From positions 69,599 through 133,598 of IMG/VR virus record IMGVR_UViG_3300045988_126140: a stretch of 64,000 bases of DNA. One strand, 5' to 3'. The notes below the pieces were generated by a model. The model saw only the letters and a program-made list of their open reading frames with translations, ran no database searches and was not told the origin of the DNA. Position numbers and translations under genes: made by a program. Source of the stretch: a virus. The stretch's first letter is position 1. Every line of letters starts with the position of its first letter. Below, piece after piece: positions 9,311 through 50,390 of this stretch.

Positions 9311-9408
9311 AATATCACCCCCTAAAGGAATATGTTTTATAATTAAACATATACTAAAAAAGCCGATTTGTCTCATGTTTAAAGACATGAGTGTTCTTGG
9401 TTGCATAT

Positions 9409-35898: not shown

Positions 35899-35982
35899 TA
35901 AAGTATAAGTATTAGACAAGGGAGAACGCCCAACCGTTCATAAAGTAACAATAAAAATAATTAATAAATAGGAGTGGTAAAT

Positions 35983-36342
35983 ATGAAAACAAGAAATCCA
36001 AAGAACTTAGTTAAAAGATATGGAAATCTTTGCGAATTAGAAAACACTGTATCAGATTGTTATTTAGGAAATTCAAGTTTCTATATGTTATCTGACGGTA
36101 GATACTTGAATGCCGAATCTGATGGTAGTTACAGAGCAGTCGACCATAGAATAATTTTTGGAGCTACAAAAATAAGTGCATACGATAATGACGCTTTTGG
36201 AAAATTACAAAGAAATTACCAACTTATTAGAATAGTTCCAGAGTGTGAAACTATAATGTTAGATAAAAAGCAGAAGATAACATTAGAACAACAAAGAGAA
36301 CTTGACAACCTTGGTTTTGACATAGAATATTATTGGGAATAA
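35983..36342 (+). CDS. hypothetical protein
   Basis: ATG 35983 lies 8 nt after AGGAG; the ORF-track GTG at 35974 is unlikely. The stop sits in a hairpin followed by AGCTC. Confidence 0.7.
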   Translation: MKTRNPKNLVKRYGNLCELENTVSDCYLGNSSFYMLSDGRYLNAESDGSYRAVDHRIIFGATKISAYDNDAFGKLQRNYQLIRIVPECETIMLDKKQKITLEQQRELDNLGFDIEYYWE

Positions 36343-36402
36343 TAATCTATTCCCTAAAGCTCAAGTTTTAAAAATAATTAATAAATAAAGGGGATGTTTT
36401 AA

Positions 36403-36846
36403 ATGCTAAAAGGTGAAATAAGAAAAGGAACAATAAGAAATACAGAAGGACAAGAAAAGAAATATATTAAACAGTTCAAAGGTAACGACCTAGAAAAGTG
36501 TATCATAGCAATAAATAATATGATGCATCAACGTATATACACATCAAGTCACTTAAGAAAAAAATCAACAGTATCATATAATATGAGAACAATTTGCGAA
36601 ATGTTGAAATATGGAGAATTTGACGTCATAGAATACAATTACACTAGAGGACAAGGAAGAATATTAGTGGAAAGTTGGAGTACATTTCCAGTAGAAATTG
36701 ATGATAAAATGACACAATGTACAATGAAGGTTGTCGTTGAACCAAAAACACAAAAAATTATAACAGTATGGTATAATAGCGTTGACGACACTCATGTAAG
36801 TTTAAATATGAAAAGATATAACAAGGACTTAGAAATTGTGTTCTAG
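36403..36846 (+). CDS. hypothetical protein
   Basis: 147 aa. 15-mer, then SD AAAGGGGA, then ATG. The stop is embedded in a 7-bp hairpin followed by AGCTC. Confidence 0.7.
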   Translation: MLKGEIRKGTIRNTEGQEKKYIKQFKGNDLEKCIIAINNMMHQRIYTSSHLRKKSTVSYNMRTICEMLKYGEFDVIEYNYTRGQGRILVESWSTFPVEIDDKMTQCTMKVVVEPKTQKIITVWYNSVDDTHVSLNMKRYNKDLEIVF

Positions 36847-36899
36847 TCCTTCCAGCTCAATACTATCATTTATGATAATGAAAACAATTAATAAAATTG

Positions 36900-36928
36900 T
36901 TGACAAATATTAAATGATAGTATATAAT
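36900..36928 (+). promoter_or_regulatory. sigma-A-type promoter
   Basis: TTGACA-17-TATAAT. Shares the core AAATGATAGTATATAATAT with promoters at 37397, 37861 and 39135. Confidence 0.7.
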
Positions 36929-36963
36929 ATCGATATAAAATAAATTGATAGGAGTGATGAGTT

Positions 36964-37110
36964 ATGAAGAAAGTATATTATAGCTTATATTTAGTAACAG
37001 AAGAAAGCGAAGAATTTTTAGCAAAAGTAAAGTCAAAAGGTCTTGCAATAAGAACTAAAATGTTATATAACAAAATATATGAAGGCAAAGGAAAAATAAT
37101 TATTAAATAG
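36964..37110 (+). CDS. hypothetical small protein (48 aa)
   Basis: Not in the ORF track. Has SD GGAGTG, its own promoter, and a stop inside a hairpin followed by AGCTC. Confidence 0.55.
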   Translation: MKKVYYSLYLVTEESEEFLAKVKSKGLAIRTKMLYNKIYEGKGKIIIK

Positions 37111-37182
37111 AGGATTTTAAGCCCTCTAGCTCAAGCTATCGAATGATAGCAAATTATATTAATAAAAAGGAGATATAAGATT

Positions 37183-37347
37183 ATGAAAAATAAAATGTTA
37201 TTTGTATTAGTGTTAGTATTAGGAATTGTTATATTTAAAAATCAAATATCCATAGCATTGATGTATGCAGTTGACTGTATAGGTTATGCATTCAACATTA
37301 ATGTGGTTGATATTATTGATTTGCTTAATACAATATACTATTTATAG
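37183..37347 (+). CDS. hypothetical small membrane protein (54 aa)
   Basis: Not in the ORF track. SD AAGGAG and a hydrophobic N-terminus. Confidence 0.5.
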   Translation: MKNKMLFVLVLVLGIVIFKNQISIALMYAVDCIGYAFNINVVDIIDLLNTIYYL

Positions 37348-37396
37348 TATTAAGCAATGATGGCAAAAATAATTAATAAATTTTTTAAAATAATTA

Positions 37397-37425
37397 TTGA
37401 CAACATCTAAATGATAGTATATAAT
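37397..37425 (+). promoter_or_regulatory. sigma-A-type promoter
   Basis: TTGACA-17-TATAAT. Confidence 0.7.
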
Positions 37426-37458
37426 ATTAAGTATAAGTAAATAAAGGAGTTGGTTTAA

Positions 37459-37806
37459 ATGACTAAAAAAGAAAAAAATATATTATTAGAAGAATATGGA
37501 TATCAATATCAAATGGAACAACTAATGGATAAGGATATTAGATTTTATAAAAATCTATTAGACAAATTAGGACTTCATAATGACAGAATAAATATAGAAA
37601 ACGATGTTTATTATATGGAAAATGAATTGAGTACTGTAAAATCCCATGCCTATGAAAGCCTTAATGATATAATTGAAAAATACAATGATGGTAAAAGAGT
37701 TAACGTTGAAGTCATGGAAATTTATTTAGAAGAAATAAAATATCAAGCTACTAATGATGATAAAAAATATATAGAAAGCAGTAAAAAAATTATATTAGGA
37801 GAATAA
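37459..37806 (+). CDS. hypothetical protein
   Basis: 115 aa helical ORF. SD, promoter and a stop in the GGAGAA..TTCTCC hairpin followed by AGCTC. Confidence 0.7.
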   Translation: MTKKEKNILLEEYGYQYQMEQLMDKDIRFYKNLLDKLGLHNDRINIENDVYYMENELSTVKSHAYESLNDIIEKYNDGKRVNVEVMEIYLEEIKYQATNDDKKYIESSKKIILGE

Positions 37807-37860
37807 TTTTCTCCTAAGCTCAAGCTATCTAAATTATAGTGAATAATATTAATAAAATTG

Positions 37861-37889
37861 TTGACTTGTTGTAAATGATAGTATATAAT
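37861..37889 (+). promoter_or_regulatory. sigma-A-type promoter
   Basis: TTGACT-17-TATAAT. Confidence 0.7.
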
Positions 37890-37924
37890 ATTAAATATAG
37901 AATAAATAAAGGGGAGTCGATAAT

Positions 37925-38422
37925 ATGAAATATTTTGAAAGTTGTAAGAGTAAAGAAGACGCAAAAAAATTATATAAAAAATTAGCTTTCCAATATCATC
38001 CCGATAAAGGCGGGGATGTTGAAATAATGAAAGCCATCAATAATGAATTTGATGACTTTATGAAGAACTTTAGAGAAGAAAAAAAAGATAGTAAAAAAGA
38101 ATATGAATTTACGGCAACTACATATAGAAACCTTATAGAACAATTAATAAAATTTGACGATATAACCATTGATGTAGTAGGCTGTTTTATATGGATAACT
38201 GGCAACACTTATCCAATAAAAGAAGAATTAAAACAATTAGGATTTAGATTTAGTAAAAATAAAAAATCATGGTATATTGCGCCAGAAGAATATATGAAAA
38301 ATAGAGTCAATTATAAGAAAAAATACAGTATGAATGAAATAAAAAATAAATATGGATGTACTTCTATAAAATCAAAAGGAGGATACAAGAAGGAAAAAGA
38401 TAATATAATAATGATAGGATAA
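37925..38422 (+). CDS. J-domain (DnaJ-like) protein, paralog 1
   Basis: KKLAFQYHPDKGGD carries the HPD motif. C-terminal LKQLGFRFSKNKKSWY block is shared with 42715..43569. Confidence 0.75.
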   Translation: MKYFESCKSKEDAKKLYKKLAFQYHPDKGGDVEIMKAINNEFDDFMKNFREEKKDSKKEYEFTATTYRNLIEQLIKFDDITIDVVGCFIWITGNTYPIKEELKQLGFRFSKNKKSWYIAPEEYMKNRVNYKKKYSMNEIKNKYGCTSIKSKGGYKKEKDNIIMIG

Positions 38423-38497
38423 ATAATTAATAATACTGCTTATAAGAACATAAGCAGTATAGCTCAAAATGATTATATAAATTATTAATAAAAACTA

Positions 38498-38527
38498 TTG
38501 ACAAAAGATAGTAAAATATGATATTAT
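38498..38527 (+). promoter_or_regulatory. sigma-A-type promoter
   Basis: TTGACA-18-TATTAT with TG extension. Confidence 0.6.
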
Positions 38528-38568
38528 ATAATCATGATAAAAATAATTAATAAATAGGAGTGGTAAAT

Positions 38569-39078
38569 ATGAATAAAAAAACATTATGGACTATATTAGG
38601 TATAACAAGTAATGCTATATTTCTAATAGGATTATTATTAATAATAGTATCATTTAAATATGATACTCATAAAGAATATGCATATACAGAAATGACTAGC
38701 ATAAACATACAAAAAGATGACAAAATAATAGCTAATGAACGTCCTCTTGATGATAGTCAAGAGCATGACAATAGAGTTAATAAAGATAATAAAGATTATG
38801 CTACTAATAACACTAGTGATTATGTTATAAAAACAACTACAAAAAAATCTACATACAATAATAATAGCAAAAACAATAGTAATGATAATAAAAACTATAG
38901 TAACACTAATACTAATAATACTAATAATACTAATAATACTAATAATACTAATAACAATAATAACTATACAGTTGAATATACAAACACCAGTTATTGTGGA
39001 TTTTGTGGTAAACAATTAAATAACAACGATGGTATTTGTGAAACTTGCAAAGATATAAGAAGTAAATTAGGAGAATAA
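38569..39078 (+). CDS. membrane-anchored Asn/Thr-rich protein with C-terminal zinc ribbon
   Basis: ATG 38569 after AGGAG. N-terminal TM helix, an (NNT)n tract and CGFCGK..CETC. Confidence 0.65.
   Translation: MNKKTLWTILGITSNAIFLIGLLLIIVSFKYDTHKEYAYTEMTSINIQKDDKIIANERPLDDSQEHDNRVNKDNKDYATNNTSDYVIKTTTKKSTYNNNSKNNSNDNKNYSNTNTNNTNNTNNTNNTNNNNNYTVEYTNTSYCGFCGKQLNNNDGICETCKDIRSKLGE
38914..38949 (+). repeat. 9-bp tandem repeat (AATAATACT) x4 inside CDS
   Basis: Four perfect units encoding NNT repeats. Confidence 0.85.
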
Positions 39079-39134
39079 TTTTCTCCTAAGCTCAATACTA
39101 TCATTTTGATATTGAAAAATAATTAATAAAACTA

Positions 39135-39163
39135 TTGACAACTTATGAATGATAGTATATAAT
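39135..39163 (+). promoter_or_regulatory. sigma-A-type promoter
   Basis: TTGACA-17-TATAAT. Confidence 0.7.
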
Positions 39164-39202
39164 ATTAAATATAAGTAAATTAATAAAAAGGAGAATGATA
39201 TT

Positions 39203-39517
39203 ATGAATAAAAAAGAATTAAGAACAATAGTAAAAGGTTTAGAAGGATATAAAATAGTTTTAACAAAAGAAGAATATAGAAAAGAAGGAAGAAAAAACTT
39301 CCCTAAAAATCCTTTAGAAATAACTGTTGAAGAAATAACAAGAGAAGAATATGAAAAAATATTCTCTAGTGTAAACTTCTTTATTGAAACATTTGGAGGG
39401 ACTGAAAGAATTTATAAAAGTTATACTTTAGCAGGTTATATACCTACTAAATTAGTAAGTACAAGTCCTAATAAAGAAATTAAAATTGTAAGAAGAATAT
39501 CTATTGAAAGATATTAA
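39203..39517 (+). CDS. hypothetical protein
   Basis: 104 aa. SD AAAGGAG. Stop TAA abuts the 15-mer. Confidence 0.7.
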   Translation: MNKKELRTIVKGLEGYKIVLTKEEYRKEGRKNFPKNPLEITVEEITREEYEKIFSSVNFFIETFGGTERIYKSYTLAGYIPTKLVSTSPNKEIKIVRRISIERY

Positions 39518-39574
39518 AAATAATTAATAAAGTTATTTATAATGATGACAAAATCATATATTATATAAATATAA

Positions 39575-39610
39575 AAAGGTTTACTGGTTCATCCTTTAAA
39601 AACCAGTCGT
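39575..39610 (+). ncRNA. covarying stem-loop with conserved 11-nt loop (copy 1)
   Basis: AAAGGTTT ACTGGTT cATCCTTTAAA AACCAGT (stem 39583..39589 / 39601..39607), followed by the 15-mer. Confidence 0.5.
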
Positions 39611-39681
39611 AAAAATAATTAATAAATTTTTTAAAAAGCTTTTGACAATGATAATAAAATATATTAATTGGAGGTTTTAAA

Positions 39682-39918
39682 ATGAACAACAATTTAATAA
39701 GATTAAGAAGTTTAATAGGGAGCGAATTAGATTATGATGATATAATTTGTGCAATGATAGATAAAGACGAAGAAGTAATAATCGATAACGTAAATCGTAG
39801 TAGCAACTTTGAAGAATATGGACTTTGCAATTTGTATCTAGTATATTACAACGACCCAATAAGTAGGACATATGGCATATGGGTTGATGTTGATAATATA
39901 ATACGTGTAATATCATAA
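39682..39918 (+). CDS. hypothetical protein
   Basis: 78 aa acidic ORF with SD GGAGG. A mirror ORF on the minus strand was rejected. Confidence 0.6.
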   Translation: MNNNLIRLRSLIGSELDYDDIICAMIDKDEEVIIDNVNRSSNFEEYGLCNLYLVYYNDPISRTYGIWVDVDNIIRVIS

Positions 39919-39989
39919 GGGCGTTAAGCCCTGGTTCTTAGTCATCAAAATGATGACAGAATATATTAATATTTTGGAGGTAATAATAT

Positions 39990-40220
39990 ATGCGTATAGA
40001 AGGTTATATATTGGACTGTGATAATAATAACTTAGCTAATAGCGTATTAGAATATTTAAAAAGAAAAACAAATAATTTAACTTATAAATATGAAGAGGAT
40101 ATTTACAGTTTATTTGTAAAAGGTGATATAGTATCAAATGATACAGAAATATATATTAACAATTTTATAGATTTTTTAGAAAATAATAATATGTGTTTTA
40201 TGGGTATGTTTGGGGAGTAA
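39990..40220 (+). CDS. hypothetical protein
   Basis: 76 aa ORF with SD GGAGG. Confidence 0.6.
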   Translation: MRIEGYILDCDNNNLANSVLEYLKRKTNNLTYKYEEDIYSLFVKGDIVSNDTEIYINNFIDFLENNNMCFMGMFGE

Positions 40221-40343
40221 TTCCTCAAGTTCTAGATTGTCTAAAATGATACTAAAAATAATTAATAATACTGCCTATATTTATAGGTGATATTGCTCAA
40301 AACTATCAAATGATAGTAAATAATATTAAAGGGGATGGAATAT

Positions 40344-41168
40344 ATGAACGAATTACAAATAAATAATAAATTAGTTGCTACTATACCAAGTTACGAAATT
40401 GCTAAAATGATGGATAGAAGACATAGCGATGTATTAAGAATGTTGGAAGGGAGTGAAAAACCTAAAGTTATCGGAATAATACCAGTTATAGAGGAGAACG
40501 TAGAACTACACTTATCCGATTATTTTATTAAATCTACATTCATAACAAGTCAAAATAAAAAAGTAACTTGTTATGAATGTACGCGAATGGGTTGTGATAT
40601 ATTAGCGAATAAAATGACAGGTGAAAAGGGAATATTATTTACTGCGAAATATGTTAAACGTTTTAGAGAGATGACAGAATATATTGATAATCAAATACAA
40701 CAATTGTCACCAGAAGACCAAGCTGTATTAAATATAATAAATGCAAATGATAAACTTGATAAAGCATTAGCCATAAAGGATTACAAAGATATCATAGAAA
40801 AGCCTTTATTGCAAGAAATAGATAAAATTAAACCATTAGCTCAAAAATTTGAAGCATTTTTAAAAGATGATGGATTAATTGATATAAATACATTTGCTAA
40901 AACATTAGGGATAAAAAATCTTGGAAGAAATAATATGTATAAATATCTTAGAGATAATCACTACATAGATAAAAATAATTATGCTATGCAGAGATATATT
41001 AATCAAAAATTATTTATTCTTAAACCAAGGGGGTATAAAGAAAATTATTATGGTGAGCGTATGCTAATATTTAAAACTTTTATAACTAAAAAGGGATTGG
41101 CTTATCTATTAGGAAAATTAGTCGAAGACGGATATATAACTTTTACAGATGATAATAAAAATAATTAA
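40344..41168 (+). CDS. antirepressor (Rha N-terminal domain plus KilAC/ANT C-terminal domain)
   Basis: LVATIPSYEIAKMMDRRHSDVLRMLE is Rha-like. C-terminal INTFAKTLGIKNLGRNNMYKYLRDNHYI is KilAC-like. ATG 40344 is better spaced from the SD than 40335. The stop lies inside the 15-mer. Confidence 0.7.
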   Translation: MNELQINNKLVATIPSYEIAKMMDRRHSDVLRMLEGSEKPKVIGIIPVIEENVELHLSDYFIKSTFITSQNKKVTCYECTRMGCDILANKMTGEKGILFTAKYVKRFREMTEYIDNQIQQLSPEDQAVLNIINANDKLDKALAIKDYKDIIEKPLLQEIDKIKPLAQKFEAFLKDDGLIDINTFAKTLGIKNLGRNNMYKYLRDNHYIDKNNYAMQRYINQKLFILKPRGYKENYYGERMLIFKTFITKKGLAYLLGKLVEDGYITFTDDNKNN

Positions 41169-41179
41169 TAAATATTATT

Positions 41180-41206
41180 GACTGGAGTTTTATCCAGTCT
41201 TTTTTA
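41180..41206 (+). terminator. intrinsic terminator
   Basis: GACTGG..CCAGTC, then TTTTTTATT. Confidence 0.75.
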
Positions 41207-41679
41207 TTGTCTATAAAATGATAATGATTTTCATTAACATTAAATATTAACTCCAGAAGTTATTTTTATAAAAGCTCAATAAAATCAACCTCTTAAACGC
41301 CCTTCTAAGGCGTTTTAAAATGATTAAGGTATAAATACCTTGTAGGCTATCGAATTCCTTTATAATGGATTATATAGGATATTTTATATTTTTATCTATA
41401 ATTGATAATACTTTTCATTTATATATTTATTCTCATTTAAAAATGATACTAAAATATATTAATTTATGAATTGATAATAAATATCAAATAAAATTATTTG
41501 TTATTGAGAATAATAATCATAACTATAAAAATTAATTTATATATAAAATAATATATTTTTAAAAAAATTTATATTTATTATTGATTTATAAAATTGAATA
41601 TGATATTATATAATCATAGTAGTAAATAAAAAGTTTTAAAAGATTATAAAAATAATTAATAAAATTAATAAAAAAGCTC

Positions 41680-41708
41680 TTGACAACGATAGTTAAATCA
41701 TATATAAT
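41680..41708 (+). promoter_or_regulatory. sigma-A-type promoter
   Basis: AGCTCTTGACA-17-TATAAT. Confidence 0.7.
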
Positions 41709-41740
41709 AATATTAGATAATTAAATAAGGAGTTGATATT

Positions 41741-42253
41741 ATGTTAAGTTTACAAAAAGCAAATAAAATATTGGAATTAGTTAAATCAGAAGGTATAAAG
41801 CTAGATAATATAAAATTAATAAAAGATGATAAATTTTCATATAGTACAAATGGTGTGATAACAATTCAAAATTGTAATTTTAACATAAATTCTAAATGGT
41901 ATGAATTTATGATTAAATACTTAGAAAAAGAATATAATTTAGACTCTAATGTTTATATGTTTTATGACTTTTTAGAAACATTTTCATTTTTACATGAGGT
42001 AGGGCACGCAACACAAGGATTAAAGAATAATGAAAAATATGATGATGAATACTTTTTATATAAAAATACAATATATAAAAGTTATGAAGAAGCTTACAAA
42101 ACTTATAGAAATTTGACACTAGAAAAACAAGCTGATAAATTTGCGGTATCATTCATTAAAAATCATAAACTTGAAATCTGGGCAATAATGAATGATATAA
42201 GTGTAAAAGAGGCTGAAGAAGAGTCTCAATTTTGGGAAACAAATTTATATTAA
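41741..42253 (+). CDS. putative zinc metallopeptidase (HExxH)
   Basis: FLHEVGHATQG contains HEVGH. 170 aa. Family not resolved. Confidence 0.45.
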   Translation: MLSLQKANKILELVKSEGIKLDNIKLIKDDKFSYSTNGVITIQNCNFNINSKWYEFMIKYLEKEYNLDSNVYMFYDFLETFSFLHEVGHATQGLKNNEKYDDEYFLYKNTIYKSYEEAYKTYRNLTLEKQADKFAVSFIKNHKLEIWAIMNDISVKEAEEESQFWETNLY

Positions 42254-42278
42254 TCCTAATAGCTCGAGCTATTAGGAT
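42253..42278. repeat. perfect 26-bp palindrome ATCCTAATAGCTC|GAGCTATTAGGAT
   Basis: 13-bp arms with no loop, centred on CTCGAG. It overlaps the last base (42253) of the stop codon of 41741..42253 and contains AGCTC. Confidence 0.85.
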
Positions 42279-42313
42279 AATTATAAAAACAATTAATAAA
42301 TTTAAAAAAGCTC

Positions 42314-42342
42314 TTGACAAAATAAAATGAAGTGTGATATAA
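42314..42342 (+). promoter_or_regulatory. sigma-A-type promoter
   Basis: AGCTCTTGACA-17-TATAAT with TG extension. Confidence 0.7.
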
Positions 42343-42375
42343 TTAAAATATAAAATAAATAAAGGAGTTGATAAT

Positions 42376-42651
42376 ATGAAAACAAATAGAGATAGAATAT
42401 TAGAAAAATTAAAGAAGGAAGGGTTTATAATAGGTTGTTATGACAGTAATATAGATAAATTAAATTATAACAACATTAAAAAAGTACTAGACGATATTCC
42501 TTTTGGAAGTACTGATATACAAGTATCCCTAAATAGAAAAAAATACATTGTCGAAGTTTCTGATGTAGACAATGAGTATGATTTTAAAATGACAGAAAAA
42601 AACACTTATTTAGACAGATATGGAGATGATGAATATTATGAAAAATGGTAA
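42376..42651 (+). CDS. hypothetical protein
   Basis: 91 aa. SD. Stop in the hairpin AAGGGA..TCCCTT followed by AGCTC. Confidence 0.7.
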   Translation: MKTNRDRILEKLKKEGFIIGCYDSNIDKLNYNNIKKVLDDIPFGSTDIQVSLNRKKYIVEVSDVDNEYDFKMTEKNTYLDRYGDDEYYEKW

Positions 42652-42714
42652 GGGAATTAATCCCTTCCAGCTCTTAAAAATAATTAATAAGATAATTGAA
42701 AGGGGACAAATGAT

Positions 42715-43569
42715 ATGAAATATTTTAAAAATGTAAACTCTTTAGAAGACTTAAAAAAACAATTTAAAAAATTAGCTTTTAAACATCATCCAGATAGAGG
42801 TGGAGACGCTGAAATAATGAAAGCTGTCAATAATGAATATGATATGTTATTTCCTATTTGGAAAAATAGAGATAATATAAAAACAGAGGAAACAGCAGAA
42901 AGCACAAGAAATGAATTTTATACTGCAAATGGTTGGAAGGGTGACAAATATAATAGAGATTTAGATATTAAAACAATAGCAAAATTAGTTAGAAAACAAT
43001 TAAAAGAAGAATTTCCAGATTGTAAATTTAGTGTTACAAAAAATGAATTTTCTGGAGGTTGTAGTTTAACTGTAATTGTAAAAGAAACTCCTAAAAGTGT
43101 TTATGCAAATGATGATAAAAATATAATCAATTATGATATATCACCGTATATCGAATATCCAGAATTATCAATATATGGTAAAGAATTAGTTATAAGAGTT
43201 TGGGAAATAATAAATCAATATAGATATTCTGATTGTGACTATCAAATAGATTATTTTGACGTTAATTTTTATCCATCTTTAAACCTTGGTAATTATGATG
43301 AAACAGTCAAAGTGGTTGAAAAAGTTAAAAAATCTAAAAGACAAGAAAAAAATAATAAAAATAATAATAAATTTGATATAATAGAAAACCTTGAAAAAAA
43401 TGGAATAGAATTATATTTTGAAGGTAAACCATCAGAAGATTTTAGAAATATGTTGAAACAATTTGGATTTAGATGGAATAGAAATAAAAAATGTTGGTAT
43501 GCTAAAAGAGATTCAGATATTTTAATAGTATTTGAAAATTTACAAAATCAATATAAATTAATAGGATAA
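42715..43569 (+). CDS. J-domain (DnaJ-like) protein, paralog 2
   Basis: KKLAFKHHPDRGGD carries HPD. C-terminal LKQFGFRWNRNKKCWYAKR block as in paralog 1. Confidence 0.75.
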   Translation: MKYFKNVNSLEDLKKQFKKLAFKHHPDRGGDAEIMKAVNNEYDMLFPIWKNRDNIKTEETAESTRNEFYTANGWKGDKYNRDLDIKTIAKLVRKQLKEEFPDCKFSVTKNEFSGGCSLTVIVKETPKSVYANDDKNIINYDISPYIEYPELSIYGKELVIRVWEIINQYRYSDCDYQIDYFDVNFYPSLNLGNYDETVKVVEKVKKSKRQEKNNKNNNKFDIIENLEKNGIELYFEGKPSEDFRNMLKQFGFRWNRNKKCWYAKRDSDILIVFENLQNQYKLIG

Positions 43570-43574
43570 TATTA

Positions 43575-43608
43575 TAGGTTTATTGGTTTATCCTTTAAAA
43601 ACCAGCAT
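43575..43608 (+). ncRNA. covarying stem-loop with conserved 11-nt loop (copy 2)
   Basis: AGGTTTA TTGGTT tATCCTTTAAA AACCAG (stem 43583..43588 / 43600..43605), followed by the 15-mer. Confidence 0.5.
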
Positions 43609-43675
43609 AAAAATAATTAATAAATTTTTTAAAAATTCTTGACAATGATAGTAAAAATAATTAATAAGATAGCAC

Positions 43676-43705
43676 TTGACTTTTATATGGGTTGAGTGCT
43701 ATAAT
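43676..43705 (+). promoter_or_regulatory. sigma-A-type promoter
   Basis: TTGACT-18-TATAAT with TG extension. Confidence 0.65.
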
Positions 43706-43732
43706 ATAATATAAGATAACTGAAAGGGGAAA

Positions 43733-44227
43733 ATGATGATGAATAATATTAAAAGATTCTTAAAATTATTAAATGACGAAACAATAGAAGGCAAAATAAT
43801 AGACTGCTATTGCACTCTTCATAAACAAGCATGGTATGATGGAAAAATAAAAACTAAAATAGTACTAGATTTAAATGGAGTAATAACAGCTACAAATGAA
43901 GTAAAAGATAATCAATTACTAATAATAGAACTCAATGAATATGTAGAAGTACCAGAGACAGAATTTGGTAACATTGAATTACAAGATGATTATCAAGAAT
44001 TTGTAAATTATCTAATGGAAGAATGTGAAGAAATATTTGAAAGTGATATAGATAAACAGCAGTATATTTGGGATAATGCAACATGGAATGAATATAAAGA
44101 TTTCAATGGATTAGGTTATGAGGATGAAGAACAATATGTTTGGAATTATATTTGTGATATGGAAGATGCAGATTTTATATATAATGTTATATCAAAATTA
44201 ATAAGCCAACTAGAAATGATGGTATAA
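43733..44227 (+). CDS. acidic hypothetical protein (paralog of 45645..46193)
   Basis: Shared N-terminus (K/E)(R/K)FL..LND(E/D).I.G.I..Y..LH...W.DG.IK..I.L..G. Very D/E-rich C-terminal half. Confidence 0.7.
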   Translation: MMMNNIKRFLKLLNDETIEGKIIDCYCTLHKQAWYDGKIKTKIVLDLNGVITATNEVKDNQLLIIELNEYVEVPETEFGNIELQDDYQEFVNYLMEECEEIFESDIDKQQYIWDNATWNEYKDFNGLGYEDEEQYVWNYICDMEDADFIYNVISKLISQLEMMV

Positions 44228-44303
44228 ACTATTATATGGTAGTATGGAAATATCTATACTACCATATAGAAAAAAGATAATAAAAATAATTAATAAATAG
44301 CTC

Positions 44304-44333
44304 TTGACAAATATATCTACAATGATATATAAT
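44304..44333 (+). promoter_or_regulatory. sigma-A-type promoter
   Basis: AGCTCTTGACA-18-TATAAT. Confidence 0.65.
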
Positions 44334-44365
44334 ATAACTATAATAATAAATAAGGAGTTGATAAT

Positions 44366-44617
44366 ATGAAACAATGCACAGGAGATTATTTATATAAAGG
44401 TTTCTTAATTAATTTTAGCGAATACGACCAAGCTTGGAGATTAGAACCTACATTACAATTAACAGGAGATGATTCCGACACAGCAATAGATTTTGCTATA
44501 GAGTATAACAATGATAGTAAAAAATTTAGAACTATCAATCAAGCTAAAAGATATATAAAAGATAATTACAATGAATTAGTATTAGAAATTAAAAAATTAT
44601 ATGAGGATTTTAAATAG
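44366..44617 (+). CDS. hypothetical protein
   Basis: 83 aa. SD AAGGAG. Stop in the hairpin GAGGA..TCCTC followed by AGCTC. Confidence 0.7.
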   Translation: MKQCTGDYLYKGFLINFSEYDQAWRLEPTLQLTGDDSDTAIDFAIEYNNDSKKFRTINQAKRYIKDNYNELVLEIKKLYEDFK

Positions 44618-44664
44618 TCCTCAAGCTCAAAAGTCAATGATGATAAAAATAATTAATAAAATCA

Positions 44665-44694
44665 TTGACAAATAATAACATAACATGATATACT
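44665..44694 (+). promoter_or_regulatory. sigma-A-type promoter
   Basis: TTGACA-18-TATACT with TG extension. Confidence 0.65.
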
Positions 44695-44723
44695 TAATAT
44701 ATAAAATTGATTGGAGGAATTAA

Positions 44724-45575
44724 ATGATGGAAAAATACATTAAAAGTCCGATGAATTACACAGGGGGCAAAGGTAAATTATTAAGTCAAATATTACCACT
44801 ATTTCCAAAAAATATAAATACTTTTGTAGATTTATTTACAGGTGGTTGTAATGTAGCAGTAAATGTATCAGCTAATAAAATAATAGCTAATGATTTATGC
44901 ACTCAAGTAATAAATACATATAAAGGAATACAAAATAATACTACAGAAAAAGCTATCGAAATGATAGAAAAAATAATTAACGAATATGATTTAAGTAAAG
45001 AAAACAAAGAAGGTTATTTAGAATTAAGAAAAGCTTACAATGATGGTAATAAAGAATGGCATATATTCTATACTTTATTAGCTTATTCATTCAATAATCA
45101 AATTAGATTCAATAAAAAAGGCGAATTTAATATGCCTTTTGGAAAGGGTAGAAGTAGTTTTAACTCAACTTTAAAAAAGAAATTTGAAGACTTTTCAGAC
45201 GCAATTCATAATAAAAATATAAAATTTACAAATAACGATTTTAAAAAATTAAATATAGATAAATTAAAGAATGATGATTTTGTATATTTAGACCCACCAT
45301 ACTTAGTAACAGAAGCTACTTACAATACAGGTTGGAATGAAGAAACTGAAAAAGAATTATTATCATTATGTGACAGATTAAATGAAAAAGGTATAAAATT
45401 TGCAATATCTAATGTATTAGAACATAATGGAAGTAAAAATGAAATATTAATAAACTGGAGCAAAAATTATAATATAAACTACTTAGATTATAATTATTCA
45501 AATTGTAATTATCATAAAAAAGATAATGGACATAAAAGTATAGAAGTTTTAATTACTAACTACAAAAATAATTAA
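44724..45575 (+). CDS. dam: N6-adenine DNA methyltransferase (Dam/D12 class), orphan
   Basis: N-terminal NYTGGKGKLL..FVDLFTGG and catalytic VYLDPPY. No adjacent restriction gene. The stop lies inside the 15-mer. Confidence 0.8.
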   Translation: MMEKYIKSPMNYTGGKGKLLSQILPLFPKNINTFVDLFTGGCNVAVNVSANKIIANDLCTQVINTYKGIQNNTTEKAIEMIEKIINEYDLSKENKEGYLELRKAYNDGNKEWHIFYTLLAYSFNNQIRFNKKGEFNMPFGKGRSSFNSTLKKKFEDFSDAIHNKNIKFTNNDFKKLNIDKLKNDDFVYLDPPYLVTEATYNTGWNEETEKELLSLCDRLNEKGIKFAISNVLEHNGSKNEILINWSKNYNINYLDYNYSNCNYHKKDNGHKSIEVLITNYKNN

Positions 45576-45583
45576 TAAAACCC

Positions 45584-45612
45584 TTGACAATGATAGTTAA
45601 ACATGATATACT
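45584..45612 (+). promoter_or_regulatory. sigma-A-type promoter
   Basis: TTGACA-17-TATACT with TG extension. Confidence 0.65.
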
Positions 45613-45644
45613 TAATATATAAAAATAAAAAGGTGGTTGATATT

Positions 45645-46193
45645 ATGAATAAAACTGAAAAATTTTTAGGATTTTTAAATGATGACAAAATATTTGGTGA
45701 AATACAAGAATTATATCACGAACTACATCTAAATTTATGGACTGACGGTCATATAAAACATGATATAATATTAACTATAGACGGAGATGTTGAATATACA
45801 AGTTATATAGGTAATCAGTCTAGAATGGATGTATATGAAGGTGATGCAATACTTATATGTACTATGGACGAATATCCAGAAGTATTTGACGAAGATTTAG
45901 GGGAATTATCAGAAGTTGATAATTATAATGAATACCTTGAATGGTTAGAAAAAGATGCTAGAATCAATTATGAATATGAAACAACAGAAGAAGTTAAAGA
46001 GCATATTGAAGAGTATGCTGACGACTGGGAAAAATATTCAGAATTTGATTTAATAACATACGAAGAACAGCAACTTTTAGTTTGGCAATTTAATTGTGAA
46101 CAATACGACTGGGATTATATAAACGATAAAATTTATCAAAGAATAGACGAGTTAGAAGAAATAGGGGAAAATTACTTTAAAAGAGGGTTTTAA
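45645..46193 (+). CDS. acidic hypothetical protein (paralog of 43733..44227)
   Basis: ATG 45645 after AAAGGTGG; the ORF-track start at 45603 lies inside the promoter. D/E-rich C-terminal half. Stop in the hairpin AGAGGG..CCCTCT followed by AGCTC. Confidence 0.7.
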   Translation: MNKTEKFLGFLNDDKIFGEIQELYHELHLNLWTDGHIKHDIILTIDGDVEYTSYIGNQSRMDVYEGDAILICTMDEYPEVFDEDLGELSEVDNYNEYLEWLEKDARINYEYETTEEVKEHIEEYADDWEKYSEFDLITYEEQQLLVWQFNCEQYDWDYINDKIYQRIDELEEIGENYFKRGF

Positions 46194-46241
46194 ATAACCC
46201 TCTAGCTCAATCAATGATGATAAAAATAATTAATAAAATTA

Positions 46242-46270
46242 TTGACTTATATAATATAGTATGTTATATT
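46242..46270 (+). promoter_or_regulatory. sigma-A-type promoter
   Basis: TTGACT-17-TATATT with TG extension. The -10 region is duplicated by the 26-bp tandem repeat. Confidence 0.55.
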
Positions 46271-46300
46271 TAATATATAATATAGTATGTTATATTTAAT
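46249..46300 (+). repeat. perfect 26-bp tandem duplication ATATAATATAGTATGTTATATTTAAT x2
   Basis: Units at 46249..46274 and 46275..46300, then a partial third unit. Confidence 0.85.
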
Positions 46301-46330
46301 ATATAATATAAATAAAGGGGTGTTGATAAT

Positions 46331-46633
46331 ATGGATGAAAATGTATGTGCGAATTGTGATTATAATAAGATGTGGGGAGGTAATTGTGAATATGAACAAG
46401 AAGAAAAATGCATATATGCAACTGCTAGATATTTAACTCATGATGAACGTAATAAGATAGAAAAGAAATTAATTATGATTGATTATTTATTAAATGATAT
46501 AGTCGAAATCGACAAAGAGAATACTATCGAGGATTTAACAGATAAGATTTCAGATGTATTGTGTGAAATGGAATATGAAGTCAAATATAGAATTAGAGAC
46601 TTTGAATATATGAAAAAGGAGGGTTTTAAATAA
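46331..46633 (+). CDS. hypothetical Cys-rich protein
   Basis: N-terminal CANCDY..GGNCEYEQEEKC. Stop in an 8-bp hairpin followed by AGCTC. Confidence 0.7.
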   Translation: MDENVCANCDYNKMWGGNCEYEQEEKCIYATARYLTHDERNKIEKKLIMIDYLLNDIVEIDKENTIEDLTDKISDVLCEMEYEVKYRIRDFEYMKKEGFK

Positions 46634-46688
46634 CCTTCCAGCTCTTGAAATGATAGTAAAAATAATTAATAAATTTTTTAAAAAGCTC

Positions 46689-46717
46689 TTGACATCTTAG
46701 TTAAAATCATATATGAT
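46689..46717 (+). promoter_or_regulatory. sigma-A-type promoter
   Basis: AGCTCTTGACA-17-TATGAT. Confidence 0.6.
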
Positions 46718-46755
46718 AATATTAAGATTAAGATAATTGAAAGGGGTTTTATAAT

Positions 46756-47193
46756 ATGAGCAAATATATAACATTACCTAGTACAATAACAATGACTACT
46801 TTAGCATTAGCAAAAAGTTTATCAAGTAAACCAGTATCAACATCACCAGTAATAACATACCTTACTCCAGCAACTGTAAAACCACACATAAGCAAAGTAA
46901 TTTGCACTCTAAAAGCATCTAGTACTCCAGCAACAATGTTGCCTTATCTTGTAGGTTATAAAATAGCATTGCGTGGTACTCACCACAAATACGTATGTGT
47001 GCATAGTGTCAAAATTCCTACATCTTTGTTGATAGTATCAACAACATCAACTGGTATTATTACTTATACAGGTATGAGTTACAGTGGTGGTTATGCACAT
47101 TATACAGTACATGTATTTCCATACACTAGCACAACAACATTAACTGGTTTAATAAAGATGCTAAAAAGTGGTATGTATACATTACTACCATAA
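46756..47193 (+). CDS. Thr/Ser-rich basic protein lacking D, E, N, Q and W
   Basis: 145 aa ORF with its own promoter and SD (AAAGGGG). It is the only long ORF in any frame here. Composition is unlike all neighbours. Confidence 0.55.
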   Translation: MSKYITLPSTITMTTLALAKSLSSKPVSTSPVITYLTPATVKPHISKVICTLKASSTPATMLPYLVGYKIALRGTHHKYVCVHSVKIPTSLLIVSTTSTGIITYTGMSYSGGYAHYTVHVFPYTSTTTLTGLIKMLKSGMYTLLP

Positions 47194-47228
47194 TATAAAA
47201 GGTTTGCAGGTAATCCTTTAAAACCTGC
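47194..47228 (+). ncRNA. covarying stem-loop with conserved 11-nt loop (copy 3)
   Basis: AAAGGTTT GCAGGT aATCCTTTAAA ACCTGC (stem 47206..47211 / 47223..47228), followed by two overlapping 15-mers (47242, 47255). Confidence 0.5.
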
Positions 47229-47332
47229 TAAAAAGATTATCAAAATAATTAATAAAAATAATTAATAAATTTTTTAAAAGCTCTTGGCAATGATAGTAAA
47301 AATAATTAATAAATAATATCAAGGGGGTAAAA

Positions 47333-48115
47333 ATGATGGGGAAAAATATTAATAGAATAGGAGAGAGAAATATAAATACATTTGGAAGTGAAATGGTTAT
47401 AGTAGAATATAGAATGAATAGAGATATCGACGTTTATTTTCCAGAATATGACTGGACTTTTAAAAATGCGAGATATGAAACTTTTAAAAAAGGAAACATT
47501 AAATGTCCTTATGATAGAAGTATATATGGTGTTGGTTACATTGGTGAGGGTAATTATAAGGTAAGTGAAAATCGCAAACTAACTAAAGTTTATAGCACTT
47601 GGCAAAGCATGCTACAAAGATGTTATAGTAATAAATTTCATAAGAAACAACCTACTTATATTGGTTGTGATGTTTCTGAAGAATGGCATAATTTTCAAAA
47701 CTTTGCCAAATGGTATTATGAAAATTATTATGAGGTAGAAGGAGAAAAAATGCATTTGGATAAAGATATTTTATATAAACATAATAAGATATACTCTCCT
47801 AGGACTTGCATATTTGTACCTCAAACTATTAATGGTTTATTTATTAAAAGGGATAATAATAGAGGTAAATCAGTTATAGGGACAACGCCTCGTAAAAATG
47901 GTAAATATCAAGTAAAATGTTGTTTAATAAATCCAGAAACAGGTAAGTCTAAATATGAATATTTAGGGATTTATGACACACAAGAAAAAGGGTTTAAAAT
48001 ATATAAGTATTATAAAGAGAAAAATATTAAACAAGTTGCTGACTATTACAAAGATTTAATACCATACAAATTATATCAAGCTTTATATGAGTATGTTGTT
48101 GAAATAGATGATTGA
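47333..48115 (+). CDS. HNH_3-like/AP2-like homing-endonuclease-family protein, paralog 1 of 6
   Basis: Blocks NRIGE..NTFGSEM, Y(S/N)TW.(S/N)MLQRCY, EWHNFQNFAKWY, HLDKDIL.KHNKIYSP.TCIFVPQTIN (HNH_3-like, with the usual His position reading K) and a C-terminal AP2-like GKYQV....NP.TGKSK.EYLG.YDT.E..F..YK. Confidence 0.55.
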   Translation: MMGKNINRIGERNINTFGSEMVIVEYRMNRDIDVYFPEYDWTFKNARYETFKKGNIKCPYDRSIYGVGYIGEGNYKVSENRKLTKVYSTWQSMLQRCYSNKFHKKQPTYIGCDVSEEWHNFQNFAKWYYENYYEVEGEKMHLDKDILYKHNKIYSPRTCIFVPQTINGLFIKRDNNRGKSVIGTTPRKNGKYQVKCCLINPETGKSKYEYLGIYDTQEKGFKIYKYYKEKNIKQVADYYKDLIPYKLYQALYEYVVEIDD

Positions 48116-48169
48116 AAATTTAAAATGATACCAAAAACTATTAATAAATAATATTAAGGGGTGGTAAAA

Positions 48170-48769
48170 ATGATGAAAGAAACTTGGACTGAAAAAGAAA
48201 TAAGAAGTTATATGAAGAACTTTGTTAATGACATGGACGAAGAAGACAAAATGGTAATAGGGGATATAATTGATGCAATTCCAATATCAGTAGACGGACG
48301 ACTTAAAAATAGTCTAGGTTACTTCTCTGGTATATATAAAAGAAGTGGAGAATTTGTAGAACCTGTAAAATTTAAATTTTCCAAACGTATTAACTGTTAT
48401 GACGATAACACTATAAAACATATTATAAATCACGAACTTTTACACTTATTATCAGACAAGAAGTATGGTAAAAGTACAAGCCATAACAAAGAATGGAAAG
48501 AACTTTGCTGTAAATATAGGATAAATGATGATGAATTCTTTACTCCTAATTTAGAATTAGAAAAAGATTATCACCGTTATCATATATATTGTAATGAATG
48601 TTATAAATTAGTAGGTGTAAGAGACAGATTATCAAAAGAGAAAATAATTCAATTGTTATTATATGGAAGACATCAAGATGATTATGGTAAATTAAGAATA
48701 TATGATAATAAAGAAAAAGGATATATTAAATTAAACAATATAATGGTAAATGATGGTGAAAATAATTAA
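48170..48769 (+). CDS. SprT-like zinc metalloprotease
   Basis: GYFSG..FKFSKR.. and HIINHELLHLL (HExxH), then GK.TSHNKEWK..C. ATG 48170 after GGGGTGG. The stop lies inside the 15-mer. Confidence 0.6.
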   Translation: MMKETWTEKEIRSYMKNFVNDMDEEDKMVIGDIIDAIPISVDGRLKNSLGYFSGIYKRSGEFVEPVKFKFSKRINCYDDNTIKHIINHELLHLLSDKKYGKSTSHNKEWKELCCKYRINDDEFFTPNLELEKDYHRYHIYCNECYKLVGVRDRLSKEKIIQLLLYGRHQDDYGKLRIYDNKEKGYIKLNNIMVNDGENN

Positions 48770-49487: not shown

Positions 49488-50390
49488 ATGATGGAAAAAG
49501 TTAATAATATGGAAAGATTAATAAATAATTATATAGCATACTTGAAGGATATAAAAAACTTATCACCTAAAAGTATTAAATCATATATTCCAGTAGTAAA
49601 GGAAATGATTGAGTATTGTGGATTTAAAAGAATAGATGATATACAAAATTCTACTATAATCCAATTACAAAATTGGTTAAACAAAAAAAGAAATGAAGGA
49701 TTATCTAATCAAAGTCTTAACAGAAGGATAGCTAGTTGTAAATCATTTTATGGTTATCTATGTGCATTTAGGATTATTGATTTTAATGCTAGTAAGGAAC
49801 TTAAACAATTAAGAATTGAATCTAAAGGTAAAATAGGAAACACAGGACAAGTTGACAAAATAAGAACTTATTTAGAATCTGAATATAATAGAAAACCTAA
49901 TTATATGAATATGAGAAATAGATTGATTGTTGAAGTCATGCTTAATTGTGCTTTAAGAAATTCAGAGCTTAGACAATTAAATATAGATAGTATCAATCCC
50001 AATACTGGAGAATTTACAGTTATCCAAAAAGGCGGGACTAGGAAATCTTGCGTGTTATCTAGTAAAACATTACAACTATATAATGAATACATGATAGAAC
50101 GCAACAGAATCCCTTCTAAGGATAATTCTCTATTTCTTAGTAGTTATAAGAGTAGAATAAGTATTGGTGGCTTAGAAAAGCTTATACACAAGATAACAGA
50201 GGTTACAGGACAACAGTTAAATCCCCACGATTTACGTCATATTTCAGCTACAAAATACGTGGAAGCTGGATTTAGTTGTGATGAGGTCGCAAAGTTACTA
50301 GGGCACTCAAGTAGTAATACAACCTTCAGATTTTATTATCACCAAGATAATGACAATAAAAAGAAAATGGTTGAAAATACATGGGATTAA
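49488..50390 (+). CDS. tyrosine recombinase (XerC/D-like integrase family)
   Basis: N-terminal SAM-like domain. ..ALRNSELRQL.. (Arg), HDLRH, LLGHSSSNTTFRFYYH (His, Tyr). Confidence 0.8.
   Translation: MMEKVNNMERLINNYIAYLKDIKNLSPKSIKSYIPVVKEMIEYCGFKRIDDIQNSTIIQLQNWLNKKRNEGLSNQSLNRRIASCKSFYGYLCAFRIIDFNASKELKQLRIESKGKIGNTGQVDKIRTYLESEYNRKPNYMNMRNRLIVEVMLNCALRNSELRQLNIDSINPNTGEFTVIQKGGTRKSCVLSSKTLQLYNEYMIERNRIPSKDNSLFLSSYKSRISIGGLEKLIHKITEVTGQQLNPHDLRHISATKYVEAGFSCDEVAKLLGHSSSNTTFRFYYHQDNDNKKKMVENTWD

Follow-up and report, generated by a model that had tools for sequence, protein, structure and literature searches.

Promoter-early stem-loops (PeSLs) are found in T4-like myoviruses and are composed of an AT-rich region and a near-consensus sigma-70 promoter, with a stem-loop just upstream (PMC2839356, PMC4122927). 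They are dense in hyperplastic regions rich in ORFans and coincide with insertions and deletions (indels) between close relatives; crossover has been proposed to occur in their AT-rich part, and excision of the flanked open reading frames (ORFs) as mini-circles has been shown (PMC2839356, PMC4122927). Until now, mobile regulatory cassettes of the PeSL type were known from T4-like phages that infect Gram-negative bacteria. Presented here is a comparable system, more elaborate and very regular, from an unrelated, uncultured phage-plasmid lineage of low-GC Firmicutes. It lies in a stretch of 64,000 nucleotides, called the window below (positions 69,599 to 133,598 of the IMG/VR virus record IMGVR_UViG_3300045988_126140), in which ten sites at the ends of genes combine a stem-loop with the tag (A)GCTC(AA/TT). 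Judged from the sequences, the stem-loop and its tag form, with a probability of about 0.6, the upstream, 3'-of-gene part of a repeated PeSL-like cassette for regulation and shuffling, and presumably punctuate one-gene units at the RNA level.

Other systems share single traits with this one. Linker or boundary sequences of lambdoid phages and start-associated sequences (SAS) of cluster K mycobacteriophages are reportedly short, repeated boundary motifs co-oriented with genes, and are said to have been proposed as recombination linkers or expression signals. REP elements and other 3' stabilising stem-loops, as well as the RNase III-processed hairpins of T7 early mRNA, are exonuclease barriers or processing sites in polycistronic RNA. 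Integron attC sites have ~57-141 nt, paired inverse core sites and extrahelical bases.

Hairpins with a fixed tag at gene ends

The repeated module is made, in order, of hairpin 1, (A)GCTC(AA/TT), often a second hairpin around AAATGAT, the box AAAATAATTAATAAA, and a sigma-A promoter and/or a Shine-Dalgarno sequence (SD). Relatives were obtained by scanning IMG/VR with a 24-nt module pattern, which gave 12 contigs of 86-140 kb that are 68-98% identical to the window in blocks. The ten stems reported in the initial annotation, their coordinates and their AGCTC positions are all exact, and the palindrome at 42253-42278 is perfect, as claimed; the stem sequences also stand, whereas several stems had been cut too short, those of TAGGAGAA/TTCTCCTA, 44602-44623 and 46182-46203 all having 8 bp. 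The sites are as follows (z, folding z-score).

36335-36364, + strand: hairpin GGGAATA/TATTCCC (36335-36354), taa and AGCTCAA (36358-36364); stop of ORF 35974-36342 in the 5' arm
36823-36860, + strand: hairpin AAGGACT/AGTCCTT with a 15-nt loop, cc and AGCTCAA; stop of ORF 36403-36846 in the loop
37109-37134, + strand: hairpin (T)AGAGG/CCTCT(A) and AGCTCAA; TAG stop in the 5' arm
37796-37823, + strand: hairpin TAGGAGAA/TTCTCCTA and AGCTCAA; stop in the loop
38433-38467, + strand: free-standing hairpin ATACTGCTTAT/ATAAGCAGTAT and AGCTCAA, 10 nt past the stop and right after a box copy; z -4.2
39068-39095, + strand: second copy of hairpin TAGGAGAA/TTCTCCTA and AGCTCAA, behind the unrelated ORF 38560-39078
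42650-42675, + strand: hairpin AAGGGA/TCCCTT, cc and AGCTCTT, followed by the box and the SD of ORF 42715 without an intervening sigma-A promoter
44602-44630, + strand: hairpin TGAGGATT/AGTCCTCA (one T·G) and AGCTCAA
46182-46210, + strand: hairpin AGAGGGTT/AACCCTCT and AGCTCAA; z -3.4
46618-46646, + strand: hairpin GGAGGGTT/AACCTTCC and AGCTCTT, with one G·T wobble kept in 7 relatives
42253-42278, + strand: perfect 26-nt palindrome with AGCTC|GAGCT inside; z -4.5
41180-41199, + strand: canonical intrinsic terminator (hairpin and T6), the sole one on the + strand of 35.7-48 kb

Three degenerate copies (tags at 39933, 40228 and 40294) were absent from the initial annotation.

39918-39957, + strand: hairpin AGGGC/GCCCT (39918-39932), GGTTCTT (39933) and second hairpin GTCATCA/TGATGAC; z -3.7
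~40209-40227, + strand: hairpin GGGGA../..TCCTC, followed by AGTTC (40228)
~40266-40295, + strand: box and hairpin, TGCTCAA (40294) and second hairpin ACTATC/GATAGT (40302-40317)

The 61-nt segment 36330-36390 has a minimum free energy (MFE) of -10.7 kcal/mol (z -2.9). The relative L017 holds just the right half of the 42253-42278 palindrome, with an ordinary hairpin before it.

On the + strand of 36001-47400, AGCTC occurs 18 times against 1.89 expected, and it is the top pentamer after hairpins. Ten copies stand at most 3 nt after a GC-containing hairpin, while 1000 dinucleotide shuffles of the same region gave a mean of 0.022 and a maximum of 1. When a perfect stem is demanded, a hairpin precedes 8 of the 18 copies, against a positional background of 2.45% (P=4.6e-9). 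Positions 1-36,000 contain a further 21 (+) and 11 (-) copies of AGCTC, all without such a hairpin in front, and no AGCTC is present on the + strand beyond 47283, to 64 kb; the tag is confined to one region of ~11 kb (36.3-47.3 kb), though hairpins and boxes occur elsewhere. A rule by which a hairpin stands before every AGCTC, with A/T-only hairpins counted, was rejected, such hairpins being present at 9 of 18 AGCTC-TTGACA promoters versus 21 of 82 controls.

The window and its 12 relatives together hold 80 hairpin-AGCTC occurrences, all on the sense strand, which represent 50 distinct sequences with 39 different 5' arms. MAFFT anchors these hairpins on the right and misaligns their 5' arms, because stem and loop lengths vary, so a descriptor search with shuffles was used instead and pairs were counted in a subset of 11 hairpins of the same geometry. 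In this subset, 90.9% of the cells are paired and 7 of 8 pairs are altered on both sides, which bears out the covarying stem with a fixed 3' flank described earlier. Double-change cells amount to 21, versus 7.0±2.0 in shuffles (0/500), and pairing collapses to 42-58% when the partner columns are slid. Across relatives, one pair of the TAAGAGGNTT hairpin passes through the series A-T, G·T and G-C, the 38433 hairpin has the compensatory variants ATACTGCCTATA/TATAGGCAGTAT and ATATTGCCTA/TAGGCAATAT, orthologues of the 37109 hairpin keep pairing with other inner pairs (AGAGGAA/TTCCTCT and TAGAGGGA/TCCCTCTA), and an orthologue of the 37796 hairpin has TTTGCTCAA in place of TAAGCTCAA. Internal stem mismatches comprise 10 G·T/T·G versus 1 A·C, an excess of G·U which argues that the stem is selected, most simply as sense-strand RNA. 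By this covariation, the stem-loop is seen to be selected for pairing on the sense strand, and it most likely acts in the transcript. Antisense terminators were considered, as the - strand is T-rich after the hairpins, and rejected, since G·T would turn into A·C there.

None of the ten hairpins is followed by a U-tract on the + strand (at least five T in 8 nt, beginning 0-2 nt after the stem), in agreement with the initial annotation. The GC-containing stem-loop of an intrinsic terminator is present and its U-tract is not, and strong intrinsic termination by these hairpins is doubtful. On folding, hairpin 1 forms at all ten sites. In the MFE structure, the tag is single-stranded with a second hairpin after it at about half of the sites (37128, 37817, 38461, 46204 and the degenerate 40294), and part of the tag is paired at several others. 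A search against Rfam 15 gave no match in the window at gathering thresholds, and for 35.7-47.5 kb it gave none even at E<=1. A tRNA-like reading of the hairpins was rejected because a tRNA search found none, and a CRISPR-repeat-like reading because the stem diversity is too high.

The stop codon lies in the 5' arm or the loop at nine of the ten window sites, as had been observed before. Of the 50 distinct instances, 16 have it overlapping the 5' arm and 11 have it in the loop; it precedes the hairpin by 0-23 nt in 17 and comes further 3' in 2, and in the remaining 4 no ORF ends at the hairpin. The overlap of gene and element therefore stands, whereas the proposal that the element encodes the last residues of the proteins does not: the hairpin is a pre-existing non-coding element into which ORFs extend. 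Orthologues of ORF 46331-46633 end in ..KKNGN* or ..KKDNN* immediately 5' of the GGAGGGTT hairpin, and the ..KKEGFK* tail of the window results from a 13-nt deletion relative to them, by which the ORF reads into that hairpin. In L017, the promoter and ORF matching 44299-44595 are gone and the hairpin and AGCTC persist between two boxes. The loop TTTTAAATAA carries stops in two frames. The hairpin element is non-coding and supplies stops and tails incidentally, so the tails common to several proteins are a by-product of ORFs entering an element with a stop-bearing loop.

The composite module and the shuffling of its genes

The tag is followed by AA in 31 of the 50 distinct instances and by TT in 13. 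Many AA-type copies continue into a second, weak hairpin, in which AAATGAT is kept at the boundary of loop and 3' arm while the 5' arm covaries (arm pairs ACTATC/GATAGT, GCTATC/GATAGC, GTCATC/GATGAC and CCTTCA/TGAGGG). The downstream parts of the module are placed as follows.

37135-37150, + strand: second hairpin GCTATC gaat GATAGC, 0-3 nt past AGCTCAA
36864-36877 and 39099-39111, + strand: weaker second hairpins
36372-36385, + strand: box AAATAATTAATAAA, representative; hairpin-downstream copies at 36882, 39117, 42678, 44647, 46224 and 46660
36900-36928, + strand: TTGACA-17-TATAAT promoter, representative of at least 14 near-consensus sigma-A-type promoters
37397, 37861, 38498, 39135, 41680, 42314, 43676, 44304, 44665, 45584, 46242 and 46689, + strand: further near-consensus promoters
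41675-41685, + strand: AGCTC against the -35 element TTGACA; likewise at 42309, 44299 and 46684, and with TTGGCA at 47279

The second-hairpin family is also present at 39941-39957 and 40302-40317 and in the L003, L012 and L017 orthologues of 40213, and the string AATGATAGTA is also found immediately 5' of TATAAT in the strongest promoters (36914, 37411, 37875 and 39149).

The box has 14-16 nt. Its exact 12-mer AATAATTAATAA is present in 38 copies on the + strand (35840-61656) and in 10 copies on the - strand (2958-29418), and copies are always co-oriented with the genes on both arms. It is located 3-5 nt upstream of TTGACA, which is the position of an UP element, or 0-8 nt upstream of an SD, it contains the -10-like AATAAT, and it often holds the stop of the upstream ORF, which gives ..KNN* tails. 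The box could be a phage sigma-factor promoter, a start-associated sequence or a recombination linker, the first being possible in a phage with genes for two ECF-like sigma factors and for a larger sigma-like protein. Its reading as a -10 element with an upstream -35 at fixed distance was rejected as inconsistent at 36358 and 42669.

Seven of the ten sites lie 40-50 nt upstream of a 10-12/12 match to the sigma-A consensus (TTGACA-N17/18-TATAAT), with the A/T box between. At the other three (36358, 37128 and 42669) the box and SD follow directly and the next gene has no consensus promoter of its own, which argues that the hairpins are not efficient terminators, unless the box is a promoter. AGCTC also abuts -35 elements directly, as reported, though the positions first given were off by one base (the starts are 41675, 42309, 44299 and 46684), and a fifth abutment, against TTGGCA, is found at 47279. 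In the window and its relatives such abutment occurs in at least 18 distinct promoters, where AGCTC is followed by the graded series TTGACA, TTGGCA, TTGAAA and TTAAAA. The tag is needed by neither hairpins nor promoters, since 82 box-associated TTGACA promoters lack AGCTC and some hairpins of the same families run straight into the box with no tag. AGCTCAA as an alternative, MotA-box-like -35 element was rejected because its distance to the next -10 element or box varies over 9-30 nt. A scan of viral contigs for AGCTCTTGACA-N16-18-TATAAT gave scattered single matches in many unrelated contigs and was uninformative.

A third hairpin family is present at 39583-39607, 43583-43605 and 47206-47228 and in two relatives (L002, 1428-1454; L018, 1449). 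It has a conserved loop ATCCTTTAA(A), which is complementary to the SD-like AAAGGAU, and covarying stems (ACTGGTT, TTGGTTT, GCAGGT and GTGAGTT), and next to it comes the box, with or without an AGCTCTT in between.

The order and content of homology blocks differ in every relative. Inside 35974-48769, where gene interiors cover 73% of the bases, 81% of 173 block ends fall outside them. A box is at most 15 nt away from 44% of the ends; the same holds for 7% of positions drawn at random and for 24% of those drawn from intergenic DNA. On the right-hand side of AGCTC, pairwise homology stops after 0-13, 29-38 or 53-86 nt. The gene with the AAGGACT hairpin is joined to five different downstream modules, with the switch after AGCTCAA(T/G)(G/A)CTATC; three different hairpins stand in front of the module that precedes the MKNKMLFV gene, and there the sequences change exactly at AGCTC; and behind the GGAGGGTT hairpin, tag and box come three different genes, the change falling where the box ends. 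Genes between modules are gained, lost and replaced, and the joints lie inside the modules, mostly at the box. The cassette-level gain, loss and replacement anticipated by the initial annotation is thus found among the relatives, with joints within the intergenic modules; the expectation that joints fall exactly at the hairpin/AGCTC junction fails, there being no fixed crossover point and an enrichment at the box. This pattern fits homologous recombination between short conserved linkers, not site-specific recombination at a single point.

The more distant relative MT835477 (35% GC) has no box and no hairpin followed by the tag, and at 40-90 kb of phiCD211 operons are tightly packed, with no enriched k-mer after hairpins. 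The absence from both indicates that the module is specific to this lineage.

Five paralogous ORFs of ~260 aa, which cross-match at 70-76% nucleotide identity, are located at 47333-48115, 50534-51346, 53464-54240, 55493-56269 and 57122-57904, and at different places in the relatives. The first one matches PHROG families of HNH endonucleases (2e-59), and the five may be homing endonucleases that add to the mosaicism. Two pairs of paralogues lie within the array, which indicates that it also grows by duplication. The pair 37925-38422 and 42715-43569 shares a J-domain-like N-terminus (67% over 43 aa) and a DUF5710-like C-terminal motif, and the pair 43733-44227 and 45645-46193 is 30% identical over 171 aa.

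Comparison with known systems and rival explanations

The PeSL-like reading put forward in the initial annotation agrees with the published architecture of a stem-loop, a near-consensus sigma-70-type promoter and an AT-rich upstream region. At seven of the ten sites, a stem-loop precedes a strong sigma-70-type promoter, behind which come an SD and a start codon, and the other three resemble degraded or partial units. As with PeSLs, the repeats are densely packed among the small ORFan genes of an early region that is hypervariable, stem sequences differ, and indels or replacements coincide with the cassettes, the AT-rich crossover part being here the box. Degraded PeSLs keep just the stem-loop and the -35 element (PMC4122927), to which corresponds here the continuum of AGCTC with TTGACA, TTGGCA, TTGAAA or TTAAAA. 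The differences are that the carrier is a siphovirus-like phage-plasmid of a Gram-positive, clostridial-type host and not a T4-like myovirus, that the stems are short, with a purine-rich 5' arm, no U-tract and frequent overlap with a stop codon, and that three fixed parts are added, namely the (A)GCTC tag, the AAATGAT second hairpin and the exactly conserved box of 14-16 nt, which are not described for PeSLs. All sequence-level features of PeSLs are present and the T4-like lineage is not; the module would work like a PeSL without being one by descent.

The placement of the box 0-8 nt upstream of SDs is presumably similar to that of SAS, while both lambdoid linkers and SAS reportedly have other sequences and hosts and no unit of hairpin plus tag. 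REP elements and the T7 hairpins are likewise intergenic stem-loops without a U-tract at the 3' ends of cistrons; their stems are conserved or long and irregular, whereas those described here are short and variable, with a conserved single-stranded tag on the 3' side.

In the PeSL-like reading, the stem-loop would punctuate, in RNA, tandem and strongly promoted one-gene units. It may act as an attenuator and/or as a barrier to 3' exonucleases, and so define and stabilise the 3' end of each cassette mRNA, while the single-stranded GCUC(A/U)(A/U) linker from hairpin 1 to hairpin 2 would be the likely place of action of an endonuclease or another factor. The short conserved motifs, which recur in every intergenic region, could double as homology linkers through which general or phage recombination shuffles the cassettes, a role already proposed for T4-type PeSLs.

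Several observations speak against this reading. Block ends within 15 nt of AGCTC amount to 12%, compared with 16% of random intergenic positions, so the hairpin and tag are not a preferred crossover point. BLAST block ends are imprecise and drawn towards shared repeats. A mere exonuclease barrier does not account for the invariance of GCTC. In at least 18 promoters AGCTC also stands against the -35 element with no GC hairpin, a hint that its role lies at the DNA level or is purely historical. The G·T excess in the stems could be partly mutational, through a C-to-T bias of the sense strand. PeSL stem-loops are reported as effective terminators (PMC2839356), which these hairpins without a U-tract probably are not.

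AGCTC might instead be a DNA-level element of the promoter module, such as a -35 extension or a regulator site, that begins right behind whatever terminates the upstream unit; the hairpin would then be an independent 3' stem-loop that adjoins it by chance, and the AGCTCAA/AGCTCTTGAAA sites would be decayed promoters. This is not very likely: the abutment on TTGACA, where AGCTC occupies -40 to -36 and the sequence upstream of it fits what we take to be the UP-element consensus, and the gradation of the hexamer from TTGACA to TTAAAA agree with it, but the 82 promoters without AGCTC indicate that promoter function needs none, AGCTCAA is followed by no -35-like hexamer at 31 of 50 hairpin sites, the 9-30 nt spacing to the next -10 element or box is variable, and the tag (as GYTC) is retained in diverged orthologues with changed flanks. 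Degraded PeSLs with stem-loop and -35 element alone also speak for it (PMC4122927). An undescribed 'punctuation' signal for a phage or host factor, in which the covarying hairpin and GCUC(A/U)(A/U) would serve as a terminator, as a place of endoribonuclease cutting between the hairpins or, less likely, in cassette exchange through single-stranded DNA (ssDNA), is unlikely; if true, it would give the lineage a dedicated system that insulates and mobilises one-gene early cassettes. Quite unlikely is a dedicated RNA signal for a specific factor, either a factor-dependent terminator or an endoribonuclease site that yields monocistronic pieces. The invariant tag beside freely covarying stems, the evidence favouring sense-strand RNA, the tag's single-stranded position, with a hairpin on either side, at roughly half of the sites folded and its restriction to one 11-kb region, with hairpins and boxes also elsewhere, speak for such a signal, whereas no candidate RNase or termination factor was found in the window, the first base of the tag and the C/T at its position 3 vary, AA and TT are swapped at orthologous sites, and some hairpins of the same family run into the box with the tag absent. 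Antitermination of the nut/rrn type, with a boxB-like hairpin and a boxA-like GCTCTT(A/G)AAA that load Nus factors on RNA polymerase, is very unlikely. The boxA consensus is GCUCUUUA-like, and the TT-type tags (13/50) read GCTCTTAAAAAT or GCTCTTGAAA, which we take to resemble lambda nutL boxA CGCTCTTAAAAAT and rrn boxA; the C/T variation of GYTC presumably parallels the difference between the E. coli and Bacillus boxA. On the other hand, 31 of 50 tags are GCTCAA with no U-run, AA and TT interchange at orthologous sites, the loops are mutually unrelated, Rfam gives no match even at E<=1, and there are more than ten sites per genome, upstream of promoters, where one or two downstream would be expected. 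There is also hardly any probability that the tag is functionless, inherited from one ancestral stem-loop/promoter unit and homogenised by recombination and gene conversion: the modules are related by descent and recombine often, and the tag is missing at some junctions of hairpin and box, but GYTC is kept in 50 distinct contexts where the 3' sequence has diverged and the stems are wholly turned over, and it persists even in the most diverged relative, L003.

The attC analogy drawn in the initial annotation, in which the hairpins would be single-strand recombination sites of a neighbouring tyrosine recombinase and the array integron-like in a phage-plasmid, is rejected on the type of recombinase, the lack of inverse core sites, the promoters of the cassettes and the imprecise joints, and its probability is minimal. 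The likeness consists of imperfectly conserved palindromes with variable stems and a fixed flank, strand-specific and at the 3' end of gene cassettes, of a small-cassette array with presence/absence polymorphism, of a tyrosine recombinase gene 2 kb past the array and of some joints exactly at |AGCTC. However, this recombinase (49488-50390) is not of the IntI type: it scores 137, 137 and 122 bits with XerA, XerC and XerD, respectively, whereas with the integron-integrase model TIGR02249 it reaches 37 bits (cut-off 265), in a match confined to the C-terminal 50 aa. With Rep3 and ParM-like genes nearby, the simplest role for a Xer-like enzyme is that of a plasmid dimer resolvase. The hairpins are shorter (17-29 nt) and have neither paired RYYYAAC/GTTRRRY-type core sites nor conserved extrahelical bases; the tag is unpaired 3' of the stem, with no complementary GAGCT 5' of the stems, and the + strand of the region has just two copies of GAGCT. 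Joints lie anywhere from 0 to 86 nt after AGCTC, with the box preferred, and the cassettes have their own promoters. The tolerance of G·T suits RNA, though it is also compatible with sense-strand ssDNA and is not decisive alone.

The thirteen genomes (window and 12 contigs) already display the shuffling, and they support the use of conserved terminator-like/promoter linkers as a general way to plug accessory genes in and out with their neighbours undisturbed. The GCTC tag, the second hairpin and the box of 14-16 nt are mutable targets for the study of RNA-level insulation and recombination of cassettes, and the parts of the module are landmarks for the annotation of gene boundaries and promoters in metagenomic genomes of the lineage.

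Genomic setting and further features

The window has a G+C content of ~25%. Genes of the - strand occupy 1-35 kb and include those for portal, tail-like, terminase-like and sigma-like proteins, and genes of the + strand occupy 35.8-64 kb. For the portal and sigma-like proteins, identity to the counterparts in phiCD211, phiCDIF1296T and LIBA, Clostridioides phages of ~130 kb, is 30-35%. Three further genes indicate a phage-plasmid.

30273-31229: Rep3 initiator
62540-63445: ParM/Alp-like protein
49488-50390, + strand: XerC/XerD/XerA-like tyrosine recombinase, ~2 kb beyond the array, weighed above as the partner of an attC system and rejected

The closest relatives of Rep3 are found on Paraclostridium and Clostridium plasmids (40-43% identity), from which a clostridial host is inferred. 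The element belongs to a siphovirus-like phage-plasmid lineage of clostridial type, of ~133 kb and unrelated to T4, and a metagenome scaffold of 133.6 kb (ERZ28662998 scaffold_26) encodes a protein identical in sequence to the 391-aa sigma-like protein of the window. The array region is early and ORFan-rich, with 22 ORFs within 35.97-48.8 kb, the majority of which have no Pfam or PHROG function. Megablast of the region against GenBank phages gave no match, the module DNA pattern gave just seven single chance matches among genome contigs, in unrelated AT-rich MAGs (metagenome-assembled genomes), and a literature search with the motif strings returned nothing relevant, the lineage and its motifs being without literature.

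The canonical terminator is followed by a non-coding and extremely AT-rich stretch of ~540 nt (41200-41740), which contains a conserved hairpin AAACGCC/GGCGTTT with TTAAAA (41295-41315) and a 16-nt tandem repeat (41524-41574), and which could hold a small RNA or a regulatory or origin-like region. An isolated AGCTC at 41273 is conserved in L012 and L017. At 46248-46310, in the promoter and leader of ORF 46331, a perfect 26-nt tandem duplication (2.4 copies) has duplicated the -10-like TATAAT strings. An in-frame TAATACTAA/AATAAT microsatellite at 38857-38968 encodes an Asn/Thr-rich run in ORF 38560-39078.

The two small ECF-like sigma factors are encoded at 57996-58586 and 58898-59470, and the 391-aa protein, which belongs to a PHROG 'sigma factor' family common to phiCD211-like phages, at 25243-26418 (- strand). 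An IS605 OrfB/TnpB-like gene, with OrfB_IS605 and Cas12f1-like TNB domains, is inserted amid the structural genes at 8168-9406 (- strand).

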